Position numbers and translations under genes: made by a program. Shown in pieces: positions 2,223-48,020 of a stretch of DNA of 48,020 nt (position 1 is its first letter; each line of letters opens with the position of its first letter). The notes beneath the pieces are model-generated. The model was given only the letters and a program-made list of their open reading frames with translations. It was not told where the DNA came from and did not search any database. The stretch is from assembly GCA_034408725.1 (NCBI GenBank), contig JAWXCN010000007.1, forward strand, positions 1 to 48,020. The letters are read 5' to 3'. Source of the DNA: Candidatus Hydrogenedentota bacterium (lineage in GTDB: Bacteria > Hydrogenedentota > Hydrogenedentia > Hydrogenedentales > SLHB01).

Positions 2223-4184
2223 ATGTCACTGCAAGGCGAACTCCTCGAGGACAAACAGCGCGCGGAGGCGGCGCTGGCGTACCGGCTTGAGTTCGAGCGC
2301 CTTGTAACCCGGCTGTCCACCCGGTTTATCCACTCTTCCGCACATGAGTTGGATGACGCCATCACTGCCGCGCTTGCCCAACTCGGTGAATTCACGCGCG
2401 TCGACCGATGCGTTGTATTTCAGTTATTTGATGATACTTCCAATGTGCATTTTACGCACGAGTGGCGCGCGCCCGATCTCGAATCGACACAATACCGATA
2501 CGCCGTGGTGTCGATGGACATCTTTCCGTGGTCGCTTGATATGTACAAAAAATTCCAATTGGTCTACGTGTCCGACGTTGACGATCTTCCGCCGGAAGCG
2601 GCAAGCGATCAGGAAATGTGGCGGTCTTCGTCCGTGAAATCGGTCCTGGCCGTTCCGCTGGCCATCGGCAAGGAGCTGCTCGGCGTCATCGCGCTAACTA
2701 CTGAACGCGACAAGAAAACCTGGCTCGAAGAAGACACGCGCCTACTGGAAACCGCCGCGCAGATGATCGCGAACGCGCTCAGCCGCCAGCGCACGGAAGC
2801 CGCGTTGCACCGGATGGAAGCGCAATTCCGCACCCTCGCCGACCAATTGCCCGCGGCGGTCGCCATCGTCGACGCGCACCGGTTTCTATACGTCAACCAG
2901 GCGGCGGAACGCCTGTCTGGCTATTCACGCGACGAGGTGCAGGCGTTGGAATGGACGGCCTTCCTGCATCCCGAAGATCGGGATGCCGGCATCCGCGTGC
3001 TTGAAACAATTTCGCAAGACGAACTTTTTCGCGGCGCAGAGGCGCGTTTCGTGAATAAGCACGGCGAGGAACGGTGGGTCGAGGTACAGGGCACGCGCAT
3101 CGAGTTTGAAGGCCAGGAATCCTTCCTTGTCACCGCGATCGACGCAACGGAACGTCACGAAGCCGCGCGCGCTATCCGCGAGCGCGAAGAACACTTGCGC
3201 CTGGTCGTCCAGAATATGCCGGTGATGATGAATGCGTTCGATGAACCCGGCAACATCATCGTGTGGAACCGCGAATCAGAGCGCGTGACCGGATACCGCC
3301 CGGACGAGATTGTGGGCAATGCGCGCGCCACCGAGACGCTCTATCCCGACGCGGCGTACCGCGCGCGCCTCCTGCGCGAATGGCACGAGCGCGGCGACGA
3401 TTTCCGCGATTGGGAATGGCACATCACCTGCCGCGACGGTTCGGTGCGCACCGTGTCGTGGTTCAACATCGCAGCGCGATTTCCGATTCCAGGCTGGGCA
3501 TCCTGGGGTATTGGCGTGGATGTAACGGACCGCCGGAAACTCGAACGCGAACTGCTCGAAATCAGCGCGCGCGAACAAATCCGCATCGGGCAGGACCTGC
3601 ACGACCGCCTGGGCCAGCACCTCACGGGTATTGGCTTCAAAAGCCAGGTGCTGGCGGAAGACCTTGCGGCGAAGGGGCTGCCGGATGCGGCGACTGCGGC
3701 AGCGGTGGTGGAAATGGTGTCAGACGCAATTAACCAGACCCGCAGCCTCGCGCGCGGGTTGTACCCCGTGCATCTCGAAGCAGACGGCCTGATGACGGCG
3801 TTGCAGGAATTGGCCGCGCAGACCCAGGCGTTGTACAAGATTCGCTGCCGTTTCGTGTGCGAGGAACCGATTCTGATCTATGATAACTCGGTGGCCACGC
3901 ATCTCTACCGCATCGCACAGGAGGCGTTGAACAACGCCGTCCGGCATGGAAAACCCGCGACCATCGAAATTGCGTTGCGCGAAGAAGGGGATGCGCTCGG
4001 GCTGCGTATCGCCGATGACGGCGTCGGCATCACGCCGGCCACAAATGGCCAGCGCGGATTGGGACTGAGTATCATGCAATATCGCGCGCGCATGATCGAT
4101 GGCGCGCTCGACGTGCGCCGCGACAGTCCATCCGGTACCGTCGTCACCTGTTCACTGACCGCGCCCGGAACGAAGGGGAAATAA
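2223..4184 (+). CDS. Cytoplasmic sensor histidine kinase (GAF, two PAS domains, HisKA_3, HATPase_c)
   Basis: H-box RIGQDLHDRLGQHL, N-box EALNNAVRHG, DDGVG, GLGL; PAS-like segments. Confidence 0.92.
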   Translation: MSLQGELLEDKQRAEAALAYRLEFERLVTRLSTRFIHSSAHELDDAITAALAQLGEFTRVDRCVVFQLFDDTSNVHFTHEWRAPDLESTQYRYAVVSMDIFPWSLDMYKKFQLVYVSDVDDLPPEAASDQEMWRSSSVKSVLAVPLAIGKELLGVIALTTERDKKTWLEEDTRLLETAAQMIANALSRQRTEAALHRMEAQFRTLADQLPAAVAIVDAHRFLYVNQAAERLSGYSRDEVQALEWTAFLHPEDRDAGIRVLETISQDELFRGAEARFVNKHGEERWVEVQGTRIEFEGQESFLVTAIDATERHEAARAIREREEHLRLVVQNMPVMMNAFDEPGNIIVWNRESERVTGYRPDEIVGNARATETLYPDAAYRARLLREWHERGDDFRDWEWHITCRDGSVRTVSWFNIAARFPIPGWASWGIGVDVTDRRKLERELLEISAREQIRIGQDLHDRLGQHLTGIGFKSQVLAEDLAAKGLPDAATAAAVVEMVSDAINQTRSLARGLYPVHLEADGLMTALQELAAQTQALYKIRCRFVCEEPILIYDNSVATHLYRIAQEALNNAVRHGKPATIEIALREEGDALGLRIADDGVGITPATNGQRGLGLSIMQYRARMIDGALDVRRDSPSGTVVTCSLTAPGTKGK

Positions 4185-4186
4185 AC

Positions 4187-4843
4187 TTGCAACGTGCGTT
4201 CAAAGTGATGCTGGTTGACGATCACCCCATTGTCCGGCAAGGACTCGCGGAATTGATCAACCGCGAATCGGATATGACCGTCTGTGGCCAGGCGGAATCT
4301 GGCGCCGCGGCAATCGTGCTCACCGACACCGCGCAGCCGGACCTCGCCCTCGTCGATATATCGCTCGACGATATGAACGGGCTGGTGCTGATCAAAAGTT
4401 TGAAGGCGCGCCAACGCAATTTGCGCGTGCTGGTGTTATCGATGCACGAAGAATCGCTTTACGCCGAACGCGCGTTGCGCGCGGGTGCCCACGGCTACAT
4501 TATGAAACGCGAAGCGCCAACAAAAGTCATCGCGGGTATCCGGCGCGTTTTGGCGGGCGATGTTTATCTCAGCGATGAATTGTCCGCGCGCATCATGCGC
4601 AAATTCGCAAATGGTCCAGACGCGGCCGGCGAATCGTCCGTATCGCGCCTCAGCGACCGCGAACTGGAAGTCTATAGCCACATTGGCCAGGGACTGAAAA
4701 CCGGACAGATTGCCGCGAAGCTTAGCCTCAGCGTCAAGACGATCGAGACCTACCGCGAACACATCAAGGAAAAAATGGGCCTGAACGACGCCACCGAACT
4801 TGTGCAAAGTGCAATCAAATGGGTGCATGGAGAAGGGAGTTAA
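4187..4843 (+). CDS. NarL/FixJ-family response regulator (REC + LuxR HTH)
   Basis: LVDDHPIVRQG, LVDISL, LSDRELEV, LSVKTIETYREHIKEK; starts 2 nt after the kinase stop (TTG start). Confidence 0.92.
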   Translation: MQRAFKVMLVDDHPIVRQGLAELINRESDMTVCGQAESGAAAIVLTDTAQPDLALVDISLDDMNGLVLIKSLKARQRNLRVLVLSMHEESLYAERALRAGAHGYIMKREAPTKVIAGIRRVLAGDVYLSDELSARIMRKFANGPDAAGESSVSRLSDRELEVYSHIGQGLKTGQIAAKLSLSVKTIETYREHIKEKMGLNDATELVQSAIKWVHGEGS

Positions 4844-4849
4844 TTTTTC

Positions 4850-6933
4850 CTACCCCGGCGCACCGACTTCTTCAGACTTTTTCCGCTTGCCATTTCCGCT
4901 GTCGGGTTTCTCGAACGAAAACTCGAACTCTTCCTGCGGCACCACTGCGGGTTCCACCGTCGGCAAAACCACTTCGCACTTCTCTCCGTCGCAATACAGG
5001 TCTGCGGCTTCTTTCGTGTTCAGGTTCGCAAAATCCAGTTTTTGGATGCGCGCGGTCGCGTTGATATACATCTCTTCCGTGATTTCCTGATACGGCGCCT
5101 GCGCATAATTGTGCTCGACCAAAGGCAGGAAACTGATTGATTTCAATTTCGGCTCATACAATTCGAGCACCTTCGGAATGTCTTTTGCCTCCTCCGGTGT
5201 GAACGTAATCGTCGCGCTGACTTGGTTGTCCGCCCAGTAATACTGCATCTGCGCGACGTTCTCGACCTGTTCCCACACTGACACGTGTTCTTTCGACCGC
5301 TCGAAGTTTGACTGCTTCACCGGGAAATACACGACCAGCGTATTGTCGCCGTACACCGATTCTTCGATGCGATACCCCGCGCCACGAATAGCTTCGACCA
5401 GCGGGCTTGTCCTGTCGAGCCGGATCGTGCGGTAGTAGAATTCCGAGTGCGGATAGTGAATCCCCGGCGTCACCCCAGGCAACAACGACACCGTGCCGCT
5501 CGGTTTCACACTGGTCTTCTTGATGCTCTCCGGAATGCACAGCCATTGCGCGTAGATTCTGTCGAGCTGGCAAATGTATTTGTAGCCTTGGTCGCACCAT
5601 TCGAAATGCGTGCGGCGCCCGTGCTTCTCGAAAGCCTGCACAATCCCGGATTGCGACAACCCGATGCGCCGGTTGCGCAGCATGATAGCGTTGGTGCGCT
5701 CGCTGTGCGTCGGCACCAACGTCACTGTTTTCGCGTAGAGGTACGCGTATTTCAGCGTGCGCTTATAGTCTTCATAGCTTTCGTGCAAGGAGGGAAACGT
5801 TTCAACCAGGTTGCAGATTTCGTAGGATTCCAGGCTCTGTTCCGCGCAGGGATTGGTGCCAGACACCTTGGCATCAAGCCAATTGGCGCCGTCTTTGAGC
5901 CGCCCGTATGCTTTCGCATTCTCGAGCCAGAAATAACCCGGCTCGCCATTCTTCGCAGTCTGCTCGCCGACCTTCGTGTAGTCCATGCCGATTGACGCGG
6001 TGATGCTGTTGTTCGATGCCCAGCGCCACGCCAATAACTTTTCGCGGTGCTTGTCCGGGTCCTTCAATTGCAAATATTCGCTGTCGTCCGCGCTGCCGAG
6101 CGCAAGCTCGGCGGTGCGCCGCACGCCACCCGATACTACGCACTTGCCAATGACATTCATAAGGTCCGTGATGTCCGCGGACGAAATCCGCTCGCTCACG
6201 CGCGCGCTCAAGACGTCATCGATATTTTTAATGCATTCGATGAGAGGTCCAGGGCCGGGGGCGATTCCGCCGAAGGTCCGAATGGCCGCGCCAGTCGGCC
6301 GAATCTGCGAATAGTCAATGTTCGCGGGGCGTTTGCCGCGGCCCGCATACGATTCCAGCACGTCGCGGACCAACTCGACCCAGCCTTCTTTCGAGTCCTC
6401 TACGACATGGGTGTGCTCGCCGATGCGTGGATCGTGGACCATGACGGTGCCGGCGCCCTTCGTGTCAAAGGCGACGCCTACGCCGAGCATGGACATATCC
6501 ATGAGAAAGCAGAACGGCTCGGAAAAGTTGAAACTAATTTCTTCCGTCGATACGAATGCGCAATTGTTCAGCGCGGCCGATCCGCGCTCGTAGATATAAT
6601 CGGTGCCCATCATCCACAGCCCGCGGCCGGGCGGAAGAAACCGGAACTCCCACATCAGGTTGTACATTTCCTGCGCGGACCGCTGCGCTTTTTGGGCGTT
6701 CCAAGGGAGCCTCAACACGCGGCAGTGATTGCGCTGGATGGTGTAACACCCTTCGACAACGCGCCGGACGGTTTCCCAATACTCTTCCGTGCGCCCGCCT
6801 TTCCGGGCACGACGCGCGCATACGTGCGCTTGAAGGTGACGTATCCCAGCGGACCCCACTTGGGTTGCTTGCCGCGATACTGCTCGATGAACTCGTCTTC
6901 CAGCGTGAACCGTTCTCGTGCATCAAACAACAT
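4850..6933 (-). CDS. nrdJ: Adenosylcobalamin-dependent (class II, monomeric RTPR-like) ribonucleotide reductase, with an apparent single-base frameshift near 6798-6802
   Basis: PPGRGLW, LNNC, TNPCAEQ active site, VKPSGT and C-terminal CDGEKC. The N-terminus MLFDARERFTL...FKRTYAR (ATG 6933, RBS gaggtg) is in a different frame from RTEEYWETV onward. Confidence 0.88.
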
Positions 6934-44998: not shown

Positions 44999-45457
44999 CT
45001 AGTGGAACACGCCGCCTTCTCCGTCCATGATTCCGAAGATCGTCTGCTGAGACTCGAAATCGCGGTTGCCGCATACGACCCAGGACAGCAGGTAATCCAG
45101 CTCTTCGAGACCGACTTCTCCGTCGAAATGATTGAGCCTATCGAGAATGGCTTCGCGTTCGACGACGTCCAGCAACCCGTAGAACTCCAGTCGTGCCAGT
45201 GCGTTACGAGCCTCAGCCGTCAACTTGTATTCCTCGAAAAGTGAAAACGAGCGCGCCACCCAGGGCCGGTTCTCTTCGCGAACCGATGTCTGGATGATTC
45301 GCGGAGCAATGAGCTTCATTGCAGCGTCAATATCACGTTTCGGGTACCCCTGGCGCGCAAGCCAGTTGCGTAGGCCGGTTTCCGTGGGAATCCCGTCCGG
45401 ATACTCTTCTATGCGTCTGAGGATGACGTCGACAAGCTTGGTGATCGACGCTTTCAT
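44999..45457 (-). CDS. DUF494/Smg-family protein
   Basis: L...GYP..DID.A, RSFS..E..KL..EAR..L.RLE..GLL....RE.I.DR and C-terminal H. Confidence 0.75.
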   Translation of the reverse strand: MKASITKLVDVILRRIEEYPDGIPTETGLRNWLARQGYPKRDIDAAMKLIAPRIIQTSVREENRPWVARSFSLFEEYKLTAEARNALARLEFYGLLDVVEREAILDRLNHFDGEVGLEELDYLLSWVVCGNRDFESQQTIFGIMDGEGGVFH

Positions 45458-45733
45458 TCGGTACTCCACAAGAATTTCCTTTTCGGGCACACATGCGCCC
45501 TTACCGGTATTGTAGGGTCGTGGCAGGCAAGGTGTCAACCGAATGCGCGGGGGCGCGCCACCGTTTTATCAGTCGAATGGCAGGGCGTCCCTGAAACGAG
45601 CCAAATTGACCGCGGTGTCAACCCTGCGGTAACGGCGGCGTTGATCGGGTGTACGATAAACGGAGCGGGTTTGCCGTAAAATCCGCGTATTCGTCCGGTG
45701 GGCAATCAGAATCCGGCATTGGCCGTGGAACGG

Positions 45734-45762
45734 TTGACCGCCCAAGACCCAGTTGGTATACT
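45734..45762 (+). promoter_or_regulatory. Near-consensus sigma70 promoter for the small-peptide unit
   Basis: TTGACC-17 nt-TATACT with TG at the extended -10 position. Confidence 0.75.
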
Positions 45763-45843
45763 TTGGTTTACGTGGTGGCAGCATCAACGCGCGGAGCGAG
45801 TACCTGTGGGGAAATCGCTTGACGCGCTCGGGAGAAATCTACT

Positions 45844-46041
45844 GTGAAACACCTTCGCACGATCTCACGGACTCCGCAACTCGCTGAGGACAGCTCGACC
45901 GATCTTTCGTTCATCCTTTCTATCCTGACATTGTTGTCAACCCTGTTTACGACCTTCCTCGGATCATTCACGACGGCGTTCGGCGGAGTGTTGGCTGCAA
46001 TCGGCGCGTATGACGCAGTGAAGAACCCTTCCGGAACGTAG
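45844..46041 (+). CDS. Small peptide 1 (65 aa): MKH-leader plus hydrophobic Ser/Thr-rich core
   Basis: RBS gggag, GTG start; MKHLRTISRTPQLA-EDSSTDLSFILSILTLLSTLFTTF...; leader similar to peptide 2. Confidence 0.7.
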   Translation: MKHLRTISRTPQLAEDSSTDLSFILSILTLLSTLFTTFLGSFTTAFGGVLAAIGAYDAVKNPSGT

Positions 46042-46104
46042 TTTGGACCGCACCGGAAGGTGGGTCAGTTTGTGGAAACGCTTATAAAGGCAGGAGATCG
46101 CAAG

Positions 46105-46251
46105 ATGAAGCACATCCGTCTGGTTTCCGTGACGCGCGCGAAACAAGCGGACGCGTTGGGGGATTTGTATAATACGGTCTGGTCGGCCTGGCTGGATTTT
46201 GTGTACGCGAAGAAGAACCAAATCATCCCCATTGACGACCCCGAGACCTAA
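46105..46251 (+). CDS. Small peptide 2 (48 aa): MKH-leader plus amphipathic core
   Basis: RBS aggag, ATG at 46105; MKHIRLVSVTRAKQA-DALGDLYNTVWSAWLDFVYAKKNQIIPIDDPET. Confidence 0.75.
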   Translation: MKHIRLVSVTRAKQADALGDLYNTVWSAWLDFVYAKKNQIIPIDDPET

Positions 46252-46270
46252 GTTCTACCCGTGTAGTTTC

Positions 46271-46312
46271 GCGTCGGGGCTTTATAATTGGAGGCCCCGG
46301 CGCTTTTCTTTT
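46271..46312 (+). terminator. Intrinsic terminator after the small peptides
   Basis: gcgtcggggc...gccccggcgc stem followed by ttttctttt. Confidence 0.8.
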
Positions 46313-46454
46313 GCCGGAGTCGCCGCTTCGGGGTGTCTTGCAGCGTGCATTCCGGCGGGCCAGCGTTTACCATAGGGATCATCTGTGCCGGACGGGCCGC
46401 ACTTCAGTGGGAATGGCGACCGCACCGGCCTGAGCGTCACGCAGCACAATCCAC

Positions 46455-47015
46455 ATGATTTCAGGAAAATACACCATTATCCGATCCGCCGAACCGGACG
46501 ATGCCGTCGCCATGTGGCGGCTGTATGATCCGGGCCGGCCGCGTTCGTTTTTACTCGGGCCATCGCGCGAAGTAATGATTCCGACGCAGGACGAAATGCG
46601 CGAGATGCTGGCACGGCGCGACGTGATTCAAGGCTCGTTTTTTGCCATCGAAGATTTTGCCGGAGAAGTCCTCGGTTGTTGCGTACTGCGTGGCGCGAAG
46701 ATGGAATCGGATTTCGCGGAAGTGGTCGTCGCGCTGTCGCACGATGGCGCTTACAACACCCCGGTGGCCGATGAGGTGTTTCAGTTCCTGGAGAAGCTCG
46801 GGTTCGTGGACAAAAAACTGAACAAGCTTGTCGCGCATTGTTTGTCTGATGAAACAGAGTACCGCGATTTTTTGGGCCGGCACGGATTCACCAGCGACGG
46901 AATCCAGCGCGAAATGGTGTACACGAAGGGCCGGTACTTCGATCTCGAATCGTTATCGTTGTTCAATTCGGCGCACACGGGAGGGGGCAATGGAACTGCG
47001 GCTGCGGCGTCCTGA
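46455..47015 (+). CDS. RimJ/RimL-family GNAT N-acyltransferase 1 (divergent)
   Basis: MISGKYTIIRSAEPDD, FAIED, F...KLNKL.A, GF..DGIQRE.VY..GRYFD. Confidence 0.8.
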   Translation: MISGKYTIIRSAEPDDAVAMWRLYDPGRPRSFLLGPSREVMIPTQDEMREMLARRDVIQGSFFAIEDFAGEVLGCCVLRGAKMESDFAEVVVALSHDGAYNTPVADEVFQFLEKLGFVDKKLNKLVAHCLSDETEYRDFLGRHGFTSDGIQREMVYTKGRYFDLESLSLFNSAHTGGGNGTAAAAS

Positions 47016-47538
47016 ACGCTCGGACCTGGACATCATCGTGGACTGGATGGGCGACGCCGAGTTCCGGCATTTCCTGTTTGGCGACACGGGGCCGCGCCCG
47101 CAGCACATGGGGCAGCAGGTGTTGGGAGTTATGAGCAGCGCTCTTGCGATTCCGATGGCGAGCGCGGGCAATCTCCTGCTGGAAGACGACGCGGCGGGCA
47201 CGATCGGAATTGTCATGCTGCAAGACGTGAGCTGGCGCAACCGGTCGTGTTTTCTTGCGCTCTACCTTGCCGCGGAACATCGAAACGGCGAAACTATCGC
47301 CCGCGCGACGGACACCGTGTTCACCTACTGCTTCGAGGAATTGAATCTTCACCGCGCGGCGATGCGCGTGGAAGCGGGACAGACCGAATACGCACAGGCA
47401 TGCACGCAGGCCGGCGCGGTCCGCGAATTTGTAATGCCTGGCCACGCGCAACGTGACGGCAAGCCGGTAGACGTACACGGTTACGGCGTGCTGCGCGCGG
47501 AGTTTGACGCACGGCGCAACGTGGCGGCGGGAGCGTAG
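46990..47538 (+). CDS. RimJ/RimL-family GNAT N-acyltransferase 2 (divergent)
   Basis: LRRPERSDLDIIVDW, SWRNRSC, YCFEELNLHR, RDGKPVD...YGVLRAEF; RBS ggaggg; overlaps GNAT 1. Confidence 0.82.
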   Translation: MELRLRRPERSDLDIIVDWMGDAEFRHFLFGDTGPRPQHMGQQVLGVMSSALAIPMASAGNLLLEDDAAGTIGIVMLQDVSWRNRSCFLALYLAAEHRNGETIARATDTVFTYCFEELNLHRAAMRVEAGQTEYAQACTQAGAVREFVMPGHAQRDGKPVDVHGYGVLRAEFDARRNVAAGA

Positions 47539-47539
47539 C

Positions 47540-48020
47540 GTGGCGCTGAAATCCAGCGTATTCATCCGCCGCGCGGACCGCGAAGACCTCGAGACAATCG
47601 TGTCGTGGATGGAGGACCCAGCTTTCCAGCGGTTCCTCTACGGCGATCCCGCGCGTTCTCCGAAGCAGATTCGCGAACAAATCGTCGGCATGCTCGGGCG
47701 TTCCGCGGCGCGCACGCTTCCTGGCGGAATCTATTTCATGGCGGACTCGAAAAAGTACGGGCCGGTGGGTCTGTTCAGCGTAGTCAATATGAGTTGGCGC
47801 AACCGATCCTGCAACATCGACTCGTATATCTGCGAAGACCGCCGGAACGGCATGTTCAGCACCGTGGCGTTTTATCGCGTACTCGAGTATTGCTTCCACG
47901 TGCTCAACATGAACCGCATCAACATCTACATCTACGGCTTCAATACGCGGTCCTGGCGCATTTTCGAGTTGACCGGCGCGAAACAGGAGCTGGTGCTTCG
48001 AGAGCACGTCGCGCGCGACG
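47540..48020 (+). CDS. RimJ/RimL-family GNAT N-acyltransferase 3 (partial; runs off the window and is absent from the ORF track)
   Basis: Manual translation from GTG 47540: MALKSSVFIRRADREDLETIVSWMEDPAFQRFLYGD...SWRNRSC...YCFHVLNMNRINIYIYGFNTRSWRIFELTGAKQELVLREHVARD. Confidence 0.85.
   Translation, partial: MALKSSVFIRRADREDLETIVSWMEDPAFQRFLYGDPARSPKQIREQIVGMLGRSAARTLPGGIYFMADSKKYGPVGLFSVVNMSWRNRSCNIDSYICEDRRNGMFSTVAFYRVLEYCFHVLNMNRINIYIYGFNTRSWRIFELTGAKQELVLREHVARD

Follow-up and report, generated by a model that had tools for sequence, protein, structure and literature searches.

Small leader-sharing peptides and a putative maturation operon conserved across Candidatus Hydrogenedentota

What is encoded by two short open reading frames (ORFs), ORF1 and ORF2, that lie near the end of a 48,020-nucleotide stretch of Candidatus Hydrogenedentota DNA (assembly GCA_034408725.1, contig JAWXCN010000007.1, positions 1 to 48,020; hereafter the window)? 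The predicted peptides share the N-terminus MKH[ILV]R..S and then diverge, and a preliminary description made from the sequence alone took them for precursors of a leader-directed peptide family. The explanation that we find best, and consider probable with real room for doubt, is that they are precursors resembling peptides that are ribosomally synthesized and then modified post-translationally (RiPPs). Their leader would recruit a fusion between a RiPP recognition element (RRE) and a GNAT domain, together with partner GNATs, before cleavage by a CPBP protease and export by an ABC-2 transporter. On this explanation the precursors belong to a system that was already present in the ancestor of the phylum and is retained almost throughout it.

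45844 to 46041, plus strand: ORF1, 65 amino acids, GTG start, leader MKHLRTISRTPQLA
46105 to 46251, plus strand: ORF2, 48 amino acids, ATG start, leader MKHIRLVSVTRAKQA

The core of ORF1 is long, hydrophobic and rich in Ser/Thr and Gly, with the C-terminus VKNPSGT, and that of ORF2 is amphipathic, with Trp, Tyr and Phe residues and a KKNQ motif. The translations agree with the earlier count for ORF1, in which the 51 residues that follow Ala14 include 15 Ser/Thr, and with the report of a KN near the C-terminus of both peptides and of Cys in neither. Searches of Pfam (E ≤ 0.1) and NCBIfam (E ≤ 1) with the two peptides returned no match.

Substitution patterns indicate that ORF1 and ORF2 are real genes under purifying selection. 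Compared with same-genus and same-family orthologues, the two genes have a proportion of synonymous differences (pS) of 0.51–0.88, near saturation, and a proportion of nonsynonymous differences (pN) of 0.10–0.34. Wherever dS is computable, dN/dS is 0.09–0.32 (0.09–0.22 for ORF1 alone), bearing out the codon-level conservation that the preliminary description had named as a test of its proposal. Counterparts of ORF2 are present at E ≤ 1 in 55 of 61 genomes of the same genus, family and order, including 45 of the 48 high-quality genomes. ORF1 has matches at this threshold in 50 of the 61, and at E < 1e-6 in 10 other genomes only. The ORF2 type is the most conserved class of the peptide family: in its alignment M1, H3 and A15 are invariant, K36 and K37 are present at ≥90%, and the consensus reads ADAFxDFxNAxWRAWxDFxYxKKNE. 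The 137 protein clusters that match the ORF2 profile include none with a Pfam domain, and their names are restricted to 'hypothetical protein' of Hydrogenedentes/Hydrogenedentota or bare gene-call tags. The related loci, gathered with a 7-row alignment, are Candidatus Hydrogenedentota / Hydrogenedentales records apart from a few labelled 'uncultured Nitrospirales bacterium' or 'uncultured bacterium'. The presence of the family across Hydrogenedentales fits the mention, in the preliminary description, of similar short MKH(I/V)R ORFs in Hydrogenedentes genomes.

The two gene types differ in their start codons. ORF1-type genes begin with a non-ATG codon in 9 of 9 genomes examined (GTG in 8, TTG in 1; examples are window position 45844 and the loci L122:7398-7592, L123:7518-7706, L124:7906-8115 and L126:5775-5966), and ATG is the start of 31 of 36 listed ORF2-type genes, with GTG in the other 5. 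Position 5 of ORF1-type leaders is often T or V rather than K/R. At L126:5775-5966, in a same-family genome, the ORF1-type frame has two in-frame TAG codons near its C-terminus and may be a shortened or decaying copy.

The loci of other genomes carry one to five tandem small genes that start M-[KR]-[HR]-[ILVM]-[KRQH]-x-[ILVM]-[ST], and we harvested 108 unique leader-bearing peptides from 51 loci. Positions 1–8 of these peptides are M, K/R, H/R, I/L/V, K/R (Q/H), x, I/V/L and S/T, and every one of them has an Ala at position 10–15, followed mostly by D (31), Q (17) or A (17). The leader is short, with 12–16 residues, and ends in Ala. It is conserved and precedes variable cores, the pattern of RiPP precursors. 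Among the cores at least five recurrent classes, unrelated to one another, can be told apart: that of ORF2, the long one of ORF1, one ending ...AKE, one with two Cys and an ...NKDPQNP type. Sec, Tat, lipoprotein, prepilin and double-glycine signals were each considered for the first 12–16 residues and rejected, as these residues contain no hydrophobic h-region, twin Arg, lipobox, G|F site or GG; the family sequences give the same outcome that had been reached for the window's leaders with respect to Sec/Tat, double-glycine and type IV prepilin signals.

Nearly all of the peptides follow a common plan of leader, helix of ~25 residues, one Lys or Lys-Lys, and polar tail. A Lys is present after residue 16 in 107 of the 108 peptides, with exactly one or two in 102, and the first residue beyond the Lys run is N, E, D or P in 90. 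The motif K[EDNPQTSG] beyond residue 25 occurs in 90% of the family, compared with 29% of 20,412 other small ORFs from the same loci. After the leader, 95 of the 108 peptides have no Cys and 13 have two or more. One precursor class has two conserved Cys 12–13 residues apart in the pattern FCxN...YQAxLCF (for example L053:8612-8803, L048:8589-8759 and L055:7411-7590).

The N-terminus shared by ORF1 and ORF2 exceeds chance. When a position matrix built from 37 leader peptides of other genomes was run over 199,552 small ORFs of the window's genome, ORF1 scored 20.2 and ORF2 19.4, against a top score of 17.5 in an equal-sized random null. Thirteen small ORFs of this genome score ≥13.9, compared with one in the null, providing the further leader-bearing paralogues that the preliminary description had asked for. 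Their sites are mostly scattered: three are in tandem on contig C222, two are on C99, a paralogue of ORF1 is on C141, and C17, C204, C150, C55 and C171 have one each. At nine such loci in the window's genome no dedicated enzymes lie beside the ORFs, the neighbours being genes for sulfate ABC transport, a porin, an extracytoplasmic function (ECF) sigma factor, glycosyltransferases, a sigma-54 activator, phosphoenolpyruvate carboxykinase and others. Three of the scattered ORFs were followed into five relatives, where open frames are kept in 4/5, 5/5 and 2/5 at an identity of 39–87%.

Two of these sites have features of their own. The ORF1 paralogue (C141:18024-18242) is a 72-amino-acid peptide with the leader MKHTRTIS, a Gly-rich hydrophobic core and DKKGE near its end; it is kept in 2/5 relatives, and its neighbours are a phosphate-selective-porin-like gene on one side and a sulfate-type ABC uptake operon on the other. 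The tandem ORFs at C99:6342-6440 and 6468-6560 encode peptides of 32 and 30 amino acids in which Pro/Ala/Lys-rich basic tails replace the helical core.

Which proteins could act on such a leader? The genes that follow ORF1 and ORF2 run to the end of the window and continue on contig C124 of the same assembly:

46455 to 47015, plus strand: GNAT 1, 186 amino acids; Pfam Acetyltransf_4 at 1.5e-10 and Acetyltransf_3 at 9e-6
46990 to 47538, plus strand: GNAT 2; Pfam Acetyltransf_3 at 3.7e-10; the listed frame opens at 46828, but with Pfam matching only from residue 57 of that frame onwards, an ATG near 46990 is the likely start
47504 to 48020, plus strand: GNAT 3, cut by the contig end; Pfam Acetyltransf_3 at 8.9e-15; continues on C124, bases 1 to 247
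C124, 248 to 982: CPBP/Rce1-like membrane protein; PF02517 at 6e-8
C124, 979 to 2019: DrrA-like ABC ATPase, which also matches a lantibiotic-protection ABC family at 6.7e-41
C124, 2022 to 2948: ABC-2 permease
C124, about 2948 to 4867: 640-amino-acid RRE/SPASM-GNAT protein

Window positions 47922–48020 are identical to bases 1–99 of C124, and from this 99-base identity we conclude that the assembly broke inside GNAT 3 and that the two contigs abut. A same-genus genome carries all of these genes on a single contig in the order seen across the window and C124. The general order of the operon is peptides, hairpin, 2–3 GNATs, CPBP protein, ABC ATPase, ABC-2 permease and 640-amino-acid protein.

This order is conserved. 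Hidden Markov models of each neighbour were applied to one 16-kb locus from each of 20 other Hydrogenedentales genomes. Downstream of the peptides on the same strand they identified two or more GNATs, the CPBP protein and the ABC ATPase in 20/20, and the ABC-2 permease and the large protein in 19/20, with the large protein of the exception on another contig. A second set of 31 loci, taken from named records and partly overlapping the first, keeps the order wherever the contig is long enough; its exceptions are three contigs that end early, one locus in which the final three genes change strand, and three with no match to the large protein in the stretch. The co-occurrence with GNATs, a peptidase and an ABC exporter for which the preliminary description had suggested looking was therefore found, with its order conserved in 20 loci. 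Together with the family across Hydrogenedentales, this maturation-type gene order supports the proposed family of leader-sharing, RiPP-like precursors.

Three stand-alone GNATs accompany an ORF1-type gene in the window, in 2 of the 20 wide loci and in 8 of 8 further loci; in the remaining 18 wide loci there are two GNATs, and ORF1-type genes are absent. This gives a lead that the third GNAT is tied to the ORF1 substrate class, although the association may reflect a single event because all eleven loci belong to one family. In one locus of the set (L067) the ATPase, permease and large gene are opposite in strand to the peptides, GNATs and CPBP gene, through inversion or mis-assembly. In many genomes (L043, L044, L046, L056, L059, L060 and others) the peptide genes have glutamate synthase genes immediately upstream, with a gltD-like cluster in 9 of the 20 loci; in the window's genus glutamate synthase is not upstream.

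CPBP proteases are characterized by the motifs EExxxR, FxxxH and HxxxN/D. All three are present in 11 of 11 orthologues of the downstream protein, which has five hydrophobic segments and matches PF02517 at 1e-11 to 1e-12 in relatives, placing it with the CPBP/Rce1-like intramembrane glutamic proteases. The closest solved relatives of GNAT 2 are an aminoglycoside 6'-N-acetyltransferase and diamine/spermidine acetyltransferases (E 5e-9 to 1e-8), enzymes that acetylate primary amines.

The 640-amino-acid protein resembles a peptide maturase. In a phmmer search of the PDB its residues 5–429 align to CteB (5wgg, E 1.9e-17), and the NCBIfam maturase models SCIFF (1.2e-20), Nif11-peptide and PapB match at 1e-20 to 3e-19, all far below their cut-offs; the SPASM domain model TIGR04085 matches at 6.7e-9, above its cut-off. 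The last ~160 residues form a RimL/SpeG-like GNAT. An AlphaFold2 model built on 18 orthologues (mean predicted local distance difference test (pLDDT) 81.2) begins with three strands and three helices, the layout of an RRE, and is disordered at residues 106–124, in the loop that corresponds to the radical-SAM motif. Foldseek places 5wgg/5why first (E 1.7e-16, target TM 0.69–0.71), followed by SpeG/RimL GNATs for the C-terminus. The protein thus has an N-terminal RRE and a SPASM region, with the SPASM cysteines kept in part.

The catalytic signature of CteB is absent. None of the 18 aligned orthologues has a conserved Cys at the place of its CxxxCxxC, and Pfam Radical_SAM has no match in the protein. 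Six Cys are invariant in these orthologues, namely C25 and C28 in an FCFECD strand, and C393, C396, C402 and C425 in the SPASM region; to judge from their number, the last four could serve one auxiliary cluster at most. The Cys-rich substrates of SCIFF/ranthipeptide maturases have no counterpart among the 108 peptides as a family, and thioether formation is excluded because 95 of these have no Cys after the leader. Active radical-SAM chemistry was accordingly rejected on two grounds, the missing CxxxCxxC and the Cys-poor peptides. We read the 640-amino-acid protein as a maturase that lost its radical chemistry and was kept as a leader-binding scaffold for the GNAT. Its orthologues carry the public names 'SPASM domain-containing protein', 'GNAT family N-acetyltransferase', 'uncharacterized protein' and 'hypothetical protein', and in the ESM Atlas its closest clusters, of 120 and 74 members, have Hydrogenedentota as their commonest source. 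The cluster at rank 3, of 465 amino acids and most commonly from Bacillota, combines Radical_SAM with Acetyltransf_1 (score 0.85) and, as a lead only, could be an active radical-SAM/GNAT relative of the fusion.

Does this protein bind the leader? Complex prediction of the 640-amino-acid protein with ORF2, in which both partners were supplied as alignments built in this analysis, gave a score of 0.80 (runs 0.81, 0.80 and 0.78), against 0.00 for the best of three controls. The pass mark for this score is reached by 116 of 157 solved complexes and by 2 of 215 mismatched pairs, and the three runs share at least 37% of their contacts. Residues 1–12 of ORF2 make confident contacts with residues 16, 23–29, 31–32 and 59–75, corresponding to strand 3 and helix 3 of the RRE, and further ones with residues 327–330 and 436–450. 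The prediction supports binding of the leader to the RRE, and with it a leader-recognizing enzyme encoded alongside its precursors, as is characteristic of RiPPs, appears to be present, the interface being a predicted one.

In the phylum at large, the leader and the large protein also occur together. We searched 135 phylum genomes with a degenerate DNA pattern covering the leader's first eight codons and obtained 637 matches, compared with 37 for a reversed control; the large protein is detected at E ≤ 1e-10 in 124 of these genomes. All 123 genomes with a strong match to it have at least one leader match (median 4). The leader is matched nowhere in 8 genomes, of which 7 lack the large protein and 1 has a match of 1.5e-13 only. 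The other 4 genomes without the large protein have 1, 1, 2 and 4 leader matches, and two of them have a completeness of 60% and 88%. Both features are missing from genomes of about four genera within one family and from a single genome of another order. Several near-identical ORF2-type genes in 'uncultured Nitrospirales bacterium' records, and one orthologue of the 640-amino-acid protein labelled Candidatus Bathyarchaeia, are probably binning or labelling errors.

The preliminary description had regarded the locus as a self-contained transcription unit, with two ORFs, each with its own ribosome-binding site (RBS), between a promoter and a terminator. All of these elements were recovered where it had placed them:

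45734 to 45762, plus strand: sigma-70-like promoter TTGACC-17-TATACT from a consensus scan, 10/12 matches, TG ahead of the -10 hexamer
45830 to 45834, plus strand: RBS-like GGGAG, 9 nt 5' of the ORF1 GTG start, from reading of the sequence
46092 to 46096, plus strand: RBS-like AGGAG, 8 nt 5' of the ORF2 ATG start, from reading of the sequence
46271 to 46313, plus strand: intrinsic-terminator-like hairpin with a T run, between the precursor and enzyme genes; by consensus scan its stem (46271 to 46303) has 13 pairs, 9 of them G-C, followed by TTTTCTTTTG

The unit is not self-contained: ORF1 and ORF2 head a longer operon, as indicated by the conserved downstream genes and by recurrence of the hairpin in relatives. 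A strong hairpin with a T run lies 3' of 21 of 36 distinct ORF2-type genes, compared with 11 of 108 random control stretches from the same loci. Because it recurs between precursor and enzyme genes in relatives, the hairpin after ORF2 is more likely an attenuator than the end of the operon. Attenuating hairpins that yield an excess of precursor transcript are a design found in lantibiotic operons, and attenuation here would likewise keep precursor transcripts in excess. Between 45000 and 47000 the scan found 2 promoter-like sites (mean 0.9 in shuffles) and 5 terminator-like sites (mean 2.5), and such a scan alone is weak evidence because shuffled sequence also yields sites of both kinds. Rfam has no family match at the locus, the single match at E ≤ 1 (E 0.88) falling elsewhere. 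Among sequencing runs containing window 45500–47000 no RNA run is listed, and seven DNA runs labelled microbial mat metagenome contain part or all of it.

A divergent promoter-like site, TTGACA-18-TACAAT (45509 to 45538, minus strand, 11/12 matches), is stronger than that of ORF1. It overlaps the 5' end of a listed minus-strand ORF (44999 to 45538) encoding a DUF494 (Smg-like) protein, whose true start may sit downstream of the site because the Pfam match begins at residue 37. Clustering of neighbour proteins finds this DUF494 gene shared with a same-genus genome only.

How might these parts work together? In the scheme that we favour, the conserved N-terminal 8–12 residues, M-K/R-H/R-[ILV]-[KR]-x-[ILV]-[ST]..., would form the leader and add a docked strand to the RRE with which the 640-amino-acid protein begins. 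The RRE-GNAT fusion and the 2–3 stand-alone GNATs would then acylate the peptide with the leader still attached, the conserved C-terminal Lys being the probable site; we place acylation before leader removal because the GNAT is tied to the leader-binding domain. The CPBP/Rce1-like protease would remove the leader, probably after the conserved Ala, and the ABC-2 transporter would export the hydrophobic or amphipathic helical product. The preliminary description had likewise suggested cleavage after the Ala and secretion, with filament formation as a further possibility. In each genome one operon would in this way serve tandem precursors of several classes as well as some twelve leader-bearing genes at scattered sites. 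Acylation of a Lys side chain is favoured because Lys is the only core feature common to the unrelated classes, and because selidamides offer a precedent. In these RiPPs, as described in PMC8784127 and PMC13647313, a GNAT acylates a Lys/Orn side-chain amine before leader cleavage, and Lys/Arg cluster at the core termini as candidate sites.

Several points weigh against this scheme. Its evidence consists of the genes, their conservation and synteny, domain homologies, co-occurrence and the predicted leader–RRE interface; that the peptides are acylated, where and with which group, where they are cut, that they are exported and what they do in the cell are inferences from these. Aligned to 1nsl, the fused GNAT shows a CoA-binding loop that looks degenerate, so this domain may not be catalytic, and sequence searches gave no solved relative for GNAT 1 at E ≤ 0.01 or for the CPBP protein at E ≤ 1. 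In the complex model the partner has a pLDDT of only 44–50, and the leader alone is placed confidently; the model assigns the core and its Lys to no GNAT site. The passing score may in part reflect likeness, because a CteB–peptide complex is solved and our own alignments were used. A Lys that ends a hydrophobic helix can also be no more than a charge that flanks the membrane. Because the genomes compared are kin, their co-occurrence counts make the cases look more independent than they are, and the joint losses of leader and large protein amount to few independent events. Near-universal, syntenic and vertical conservation is unusual for RiPP clusters, and could point to a housekeeping role of another kind.

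If the conserved Lys is not the site, the GNATs might act after the leader has been cut, acetylating or fatty-acylating the new N-terminus, with the RRE fusion only holding the precursor for the protease. The stand-alone GNATs do match Acetyltransf_3, the RimJ/RimL type, and RimL-like N-alpha-acetyltransferases (1s7n, 1s7l and 1z9u) are among the fold matches of the fused GNAT. Cleavage after the conserved Ala would create a defined new N-terminus, often D (31), Q (17) or A (17) in the 108 peptides, and several RiPP lipopeptides are GNAT-acylated at the N-terminus after leader removal, according to part of PMC13647313. The fusion of a GNAT to an RRE nevertheless suggests action while the leader still blocks the core N-terminus, the position that follows the Ala is more variable than the Lys motif near the C-terminus, and nothing puts the N-terminus into a GNAT site; we regard this order of events as unlikely, if worth keeping in mind. 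Less credible again, and in our view distinctly improbable, is that the peptides are unmodified membrane-active bacteriocins or toxins resembling phenol-soluble modulins, with the CPBP protein and ABC-2 transporter conferring self-immunity and export and the GNATs detoxifying the product. Adjacent, small, helical peptides that are amphipathic or hydrophobic, with a Gly-rich core in ORF1, would suit such a role. CPBP proteins beside an ABC-2 ATPase and permease are known from class II bacteriocin and streptolysin S loci, and the acetyltransferase domain of MccE detoxifies microcin C; the match of the DrrA-like ATPase to the lantibiotic-protection family points the same way. This account leaves a leader-binding RRE fused to a GNAT unexplained, and the CPBP protein retains all catalytic motifs. 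Nearly all genomes of the order also have the locus in one copy and in synteny, with a strongly conserved ORF2 core, whereas warfare loci are usually patchy and fast-evolving.

The many leader-bearing ORFs far from the operon, beside genes for sulfate transport, an ECF sigma factor or glycosyltransferases, raise a further possibility, namely ordinary small membrane or regulatory proteins whose N-terminus serves translation, targeting or partner binding, with an unrelated operon merely adjacent. That no RNA run contains the locus sits comfortably with such a reading. Gene order held in 20/20 loci, loss of the leader motif together with the RRE-GNAT protein, a predicted leader–RRE interface with null controls and the homology of the large protein to a peptide maturase all speak against it, and we judge it very improbable.

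How does the favoured scheme of leader-directed Lys acylation compare with characterized systems? The kind of system, a RiPP with a GNAT maturase, is known. Selidamides (kamptornamide, phaeornamide and nostolysamide, with KspN, PhaN and NpuN) likewise combine leader-bearing ribosomal precursors with GNAT genes. Their leaders are of the NHLP or Nif11 type with a Gly-Gly end; here they have 12–16 residues, end in Ala and match no Pfam or NCBIfam model. In contrast to selidamides, one GNAT is here fused to an RRE/degenerate radical-SAM/SPASM scaffold and 2–3 more stand alone, the protease is a CPBP protein rather than a C39 domain, and no arginase or LanM was found in the operon. CteB, the SCIFF ranthipeptide maturase (5wgg/5why), shares homology and fold over the first ~440 residues, including the leader-holding RRE, and the predicted leader contacts fall on the equivalent RRE. 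The 640-amino-acid protein differs from CteB in lacking CxxxCxxC (18/18), in having four SPASM-region Cys and a C-terminal GNAT fusion, and in being paired with peptides that are mostly Cys-free.

Among other comparable systems, goadvionins, lipolanthines, lipoavitides and aphotorhaptins share GNAT-dependent acylation of a ribosomal peptide (PMC13647313), but are acylated at the N-terminus once the leader has been removed. These RiPPs carry lanthionine/avionin rings or dedicated fatty-acid or polyketide synthase (PKS) genes, and no such genes are seen in the operon. The layout of the present locus has another parallel, with small precursor genes, a hairpin between precursor and enzyme genes, and then a CPBP/Abi protein, an ATPase and an ABC-2 permease. 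Streptolysin S and class II bacteriocin loci combine a CPBP protein of the SagE/PlnI type with an ABC-2 transporter in this manner. Here, unlike in those loci, there is no cyclodehydratase and no double-glycine leader, and the genes are syntenic throughout the phylum rather than strain-specific; the leader ends show no GG, and the transporter is a separate ATPase and ABC-2 permease without C39. Prochlorosins are made by one maturase acting on many scattered precursors, and the present system is similar in having one modifying system, many scattered precursors, a common leader and unrelated cores, whereas its leader family, enzyme chemistry and taxon differ. A search of the literature on Hydrogenedentes RiPPs, selidamides, and RRE/GNAT and radical-SAM/GNAT maturases, subscription-only papers lying outside its scope, found no description of the system. 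The main text of PMC12710340, on how the RRE is defined, mentions neither GNAT, acetyltransferase, SPASM and CPBP nor Hydrogenedent. New in the present system are the leader family, the fusion of a dead radical-SAM maturase to a GNAT, the CPBP protein as a candidate leader peptidase, and vertical conservation across a phylum.

If the scheme is correct, about 640 small genes in 135 genomes, a pattern-based figure to be set against 37 for the reversed control, would form one family of RiPP precursors with a new leader type, which so far is called 'hypothetical protein' or carries a bare gene-call tag where it is named at all. It would add a maturase of new design, built from an RRE, a degenerate radical-SAM/SPASM region and a fused GNAT, with further GNATs alongside, and a CPBP protease as the likely leader peptidase. 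A short leader and a single enzyme set that serve many unrelated cores would be of interest for engineering gene-encoded acylated peptides. More tentatively, and as a possibility that we would not yet lean on, the genes may constitute a vertically inherited tagging system private to Hydrogenedentota, in which an 8-residue tag on roughly a dozen small proteins in each genome and a dead radical-SAM scaffold for GNATs yield acylated helical lipopeptides that act as core envelope components or surfactants, not as weapons; if so, these would be a new class of RiPPs with housekeeping functions, and their maturase would have evolved by a new route. A RiPP-like system conserved over almost a whole uncultured phylum would be rare, would suggest a physiological role, and would offer a handle on the biology of the Hydrogenedentota.

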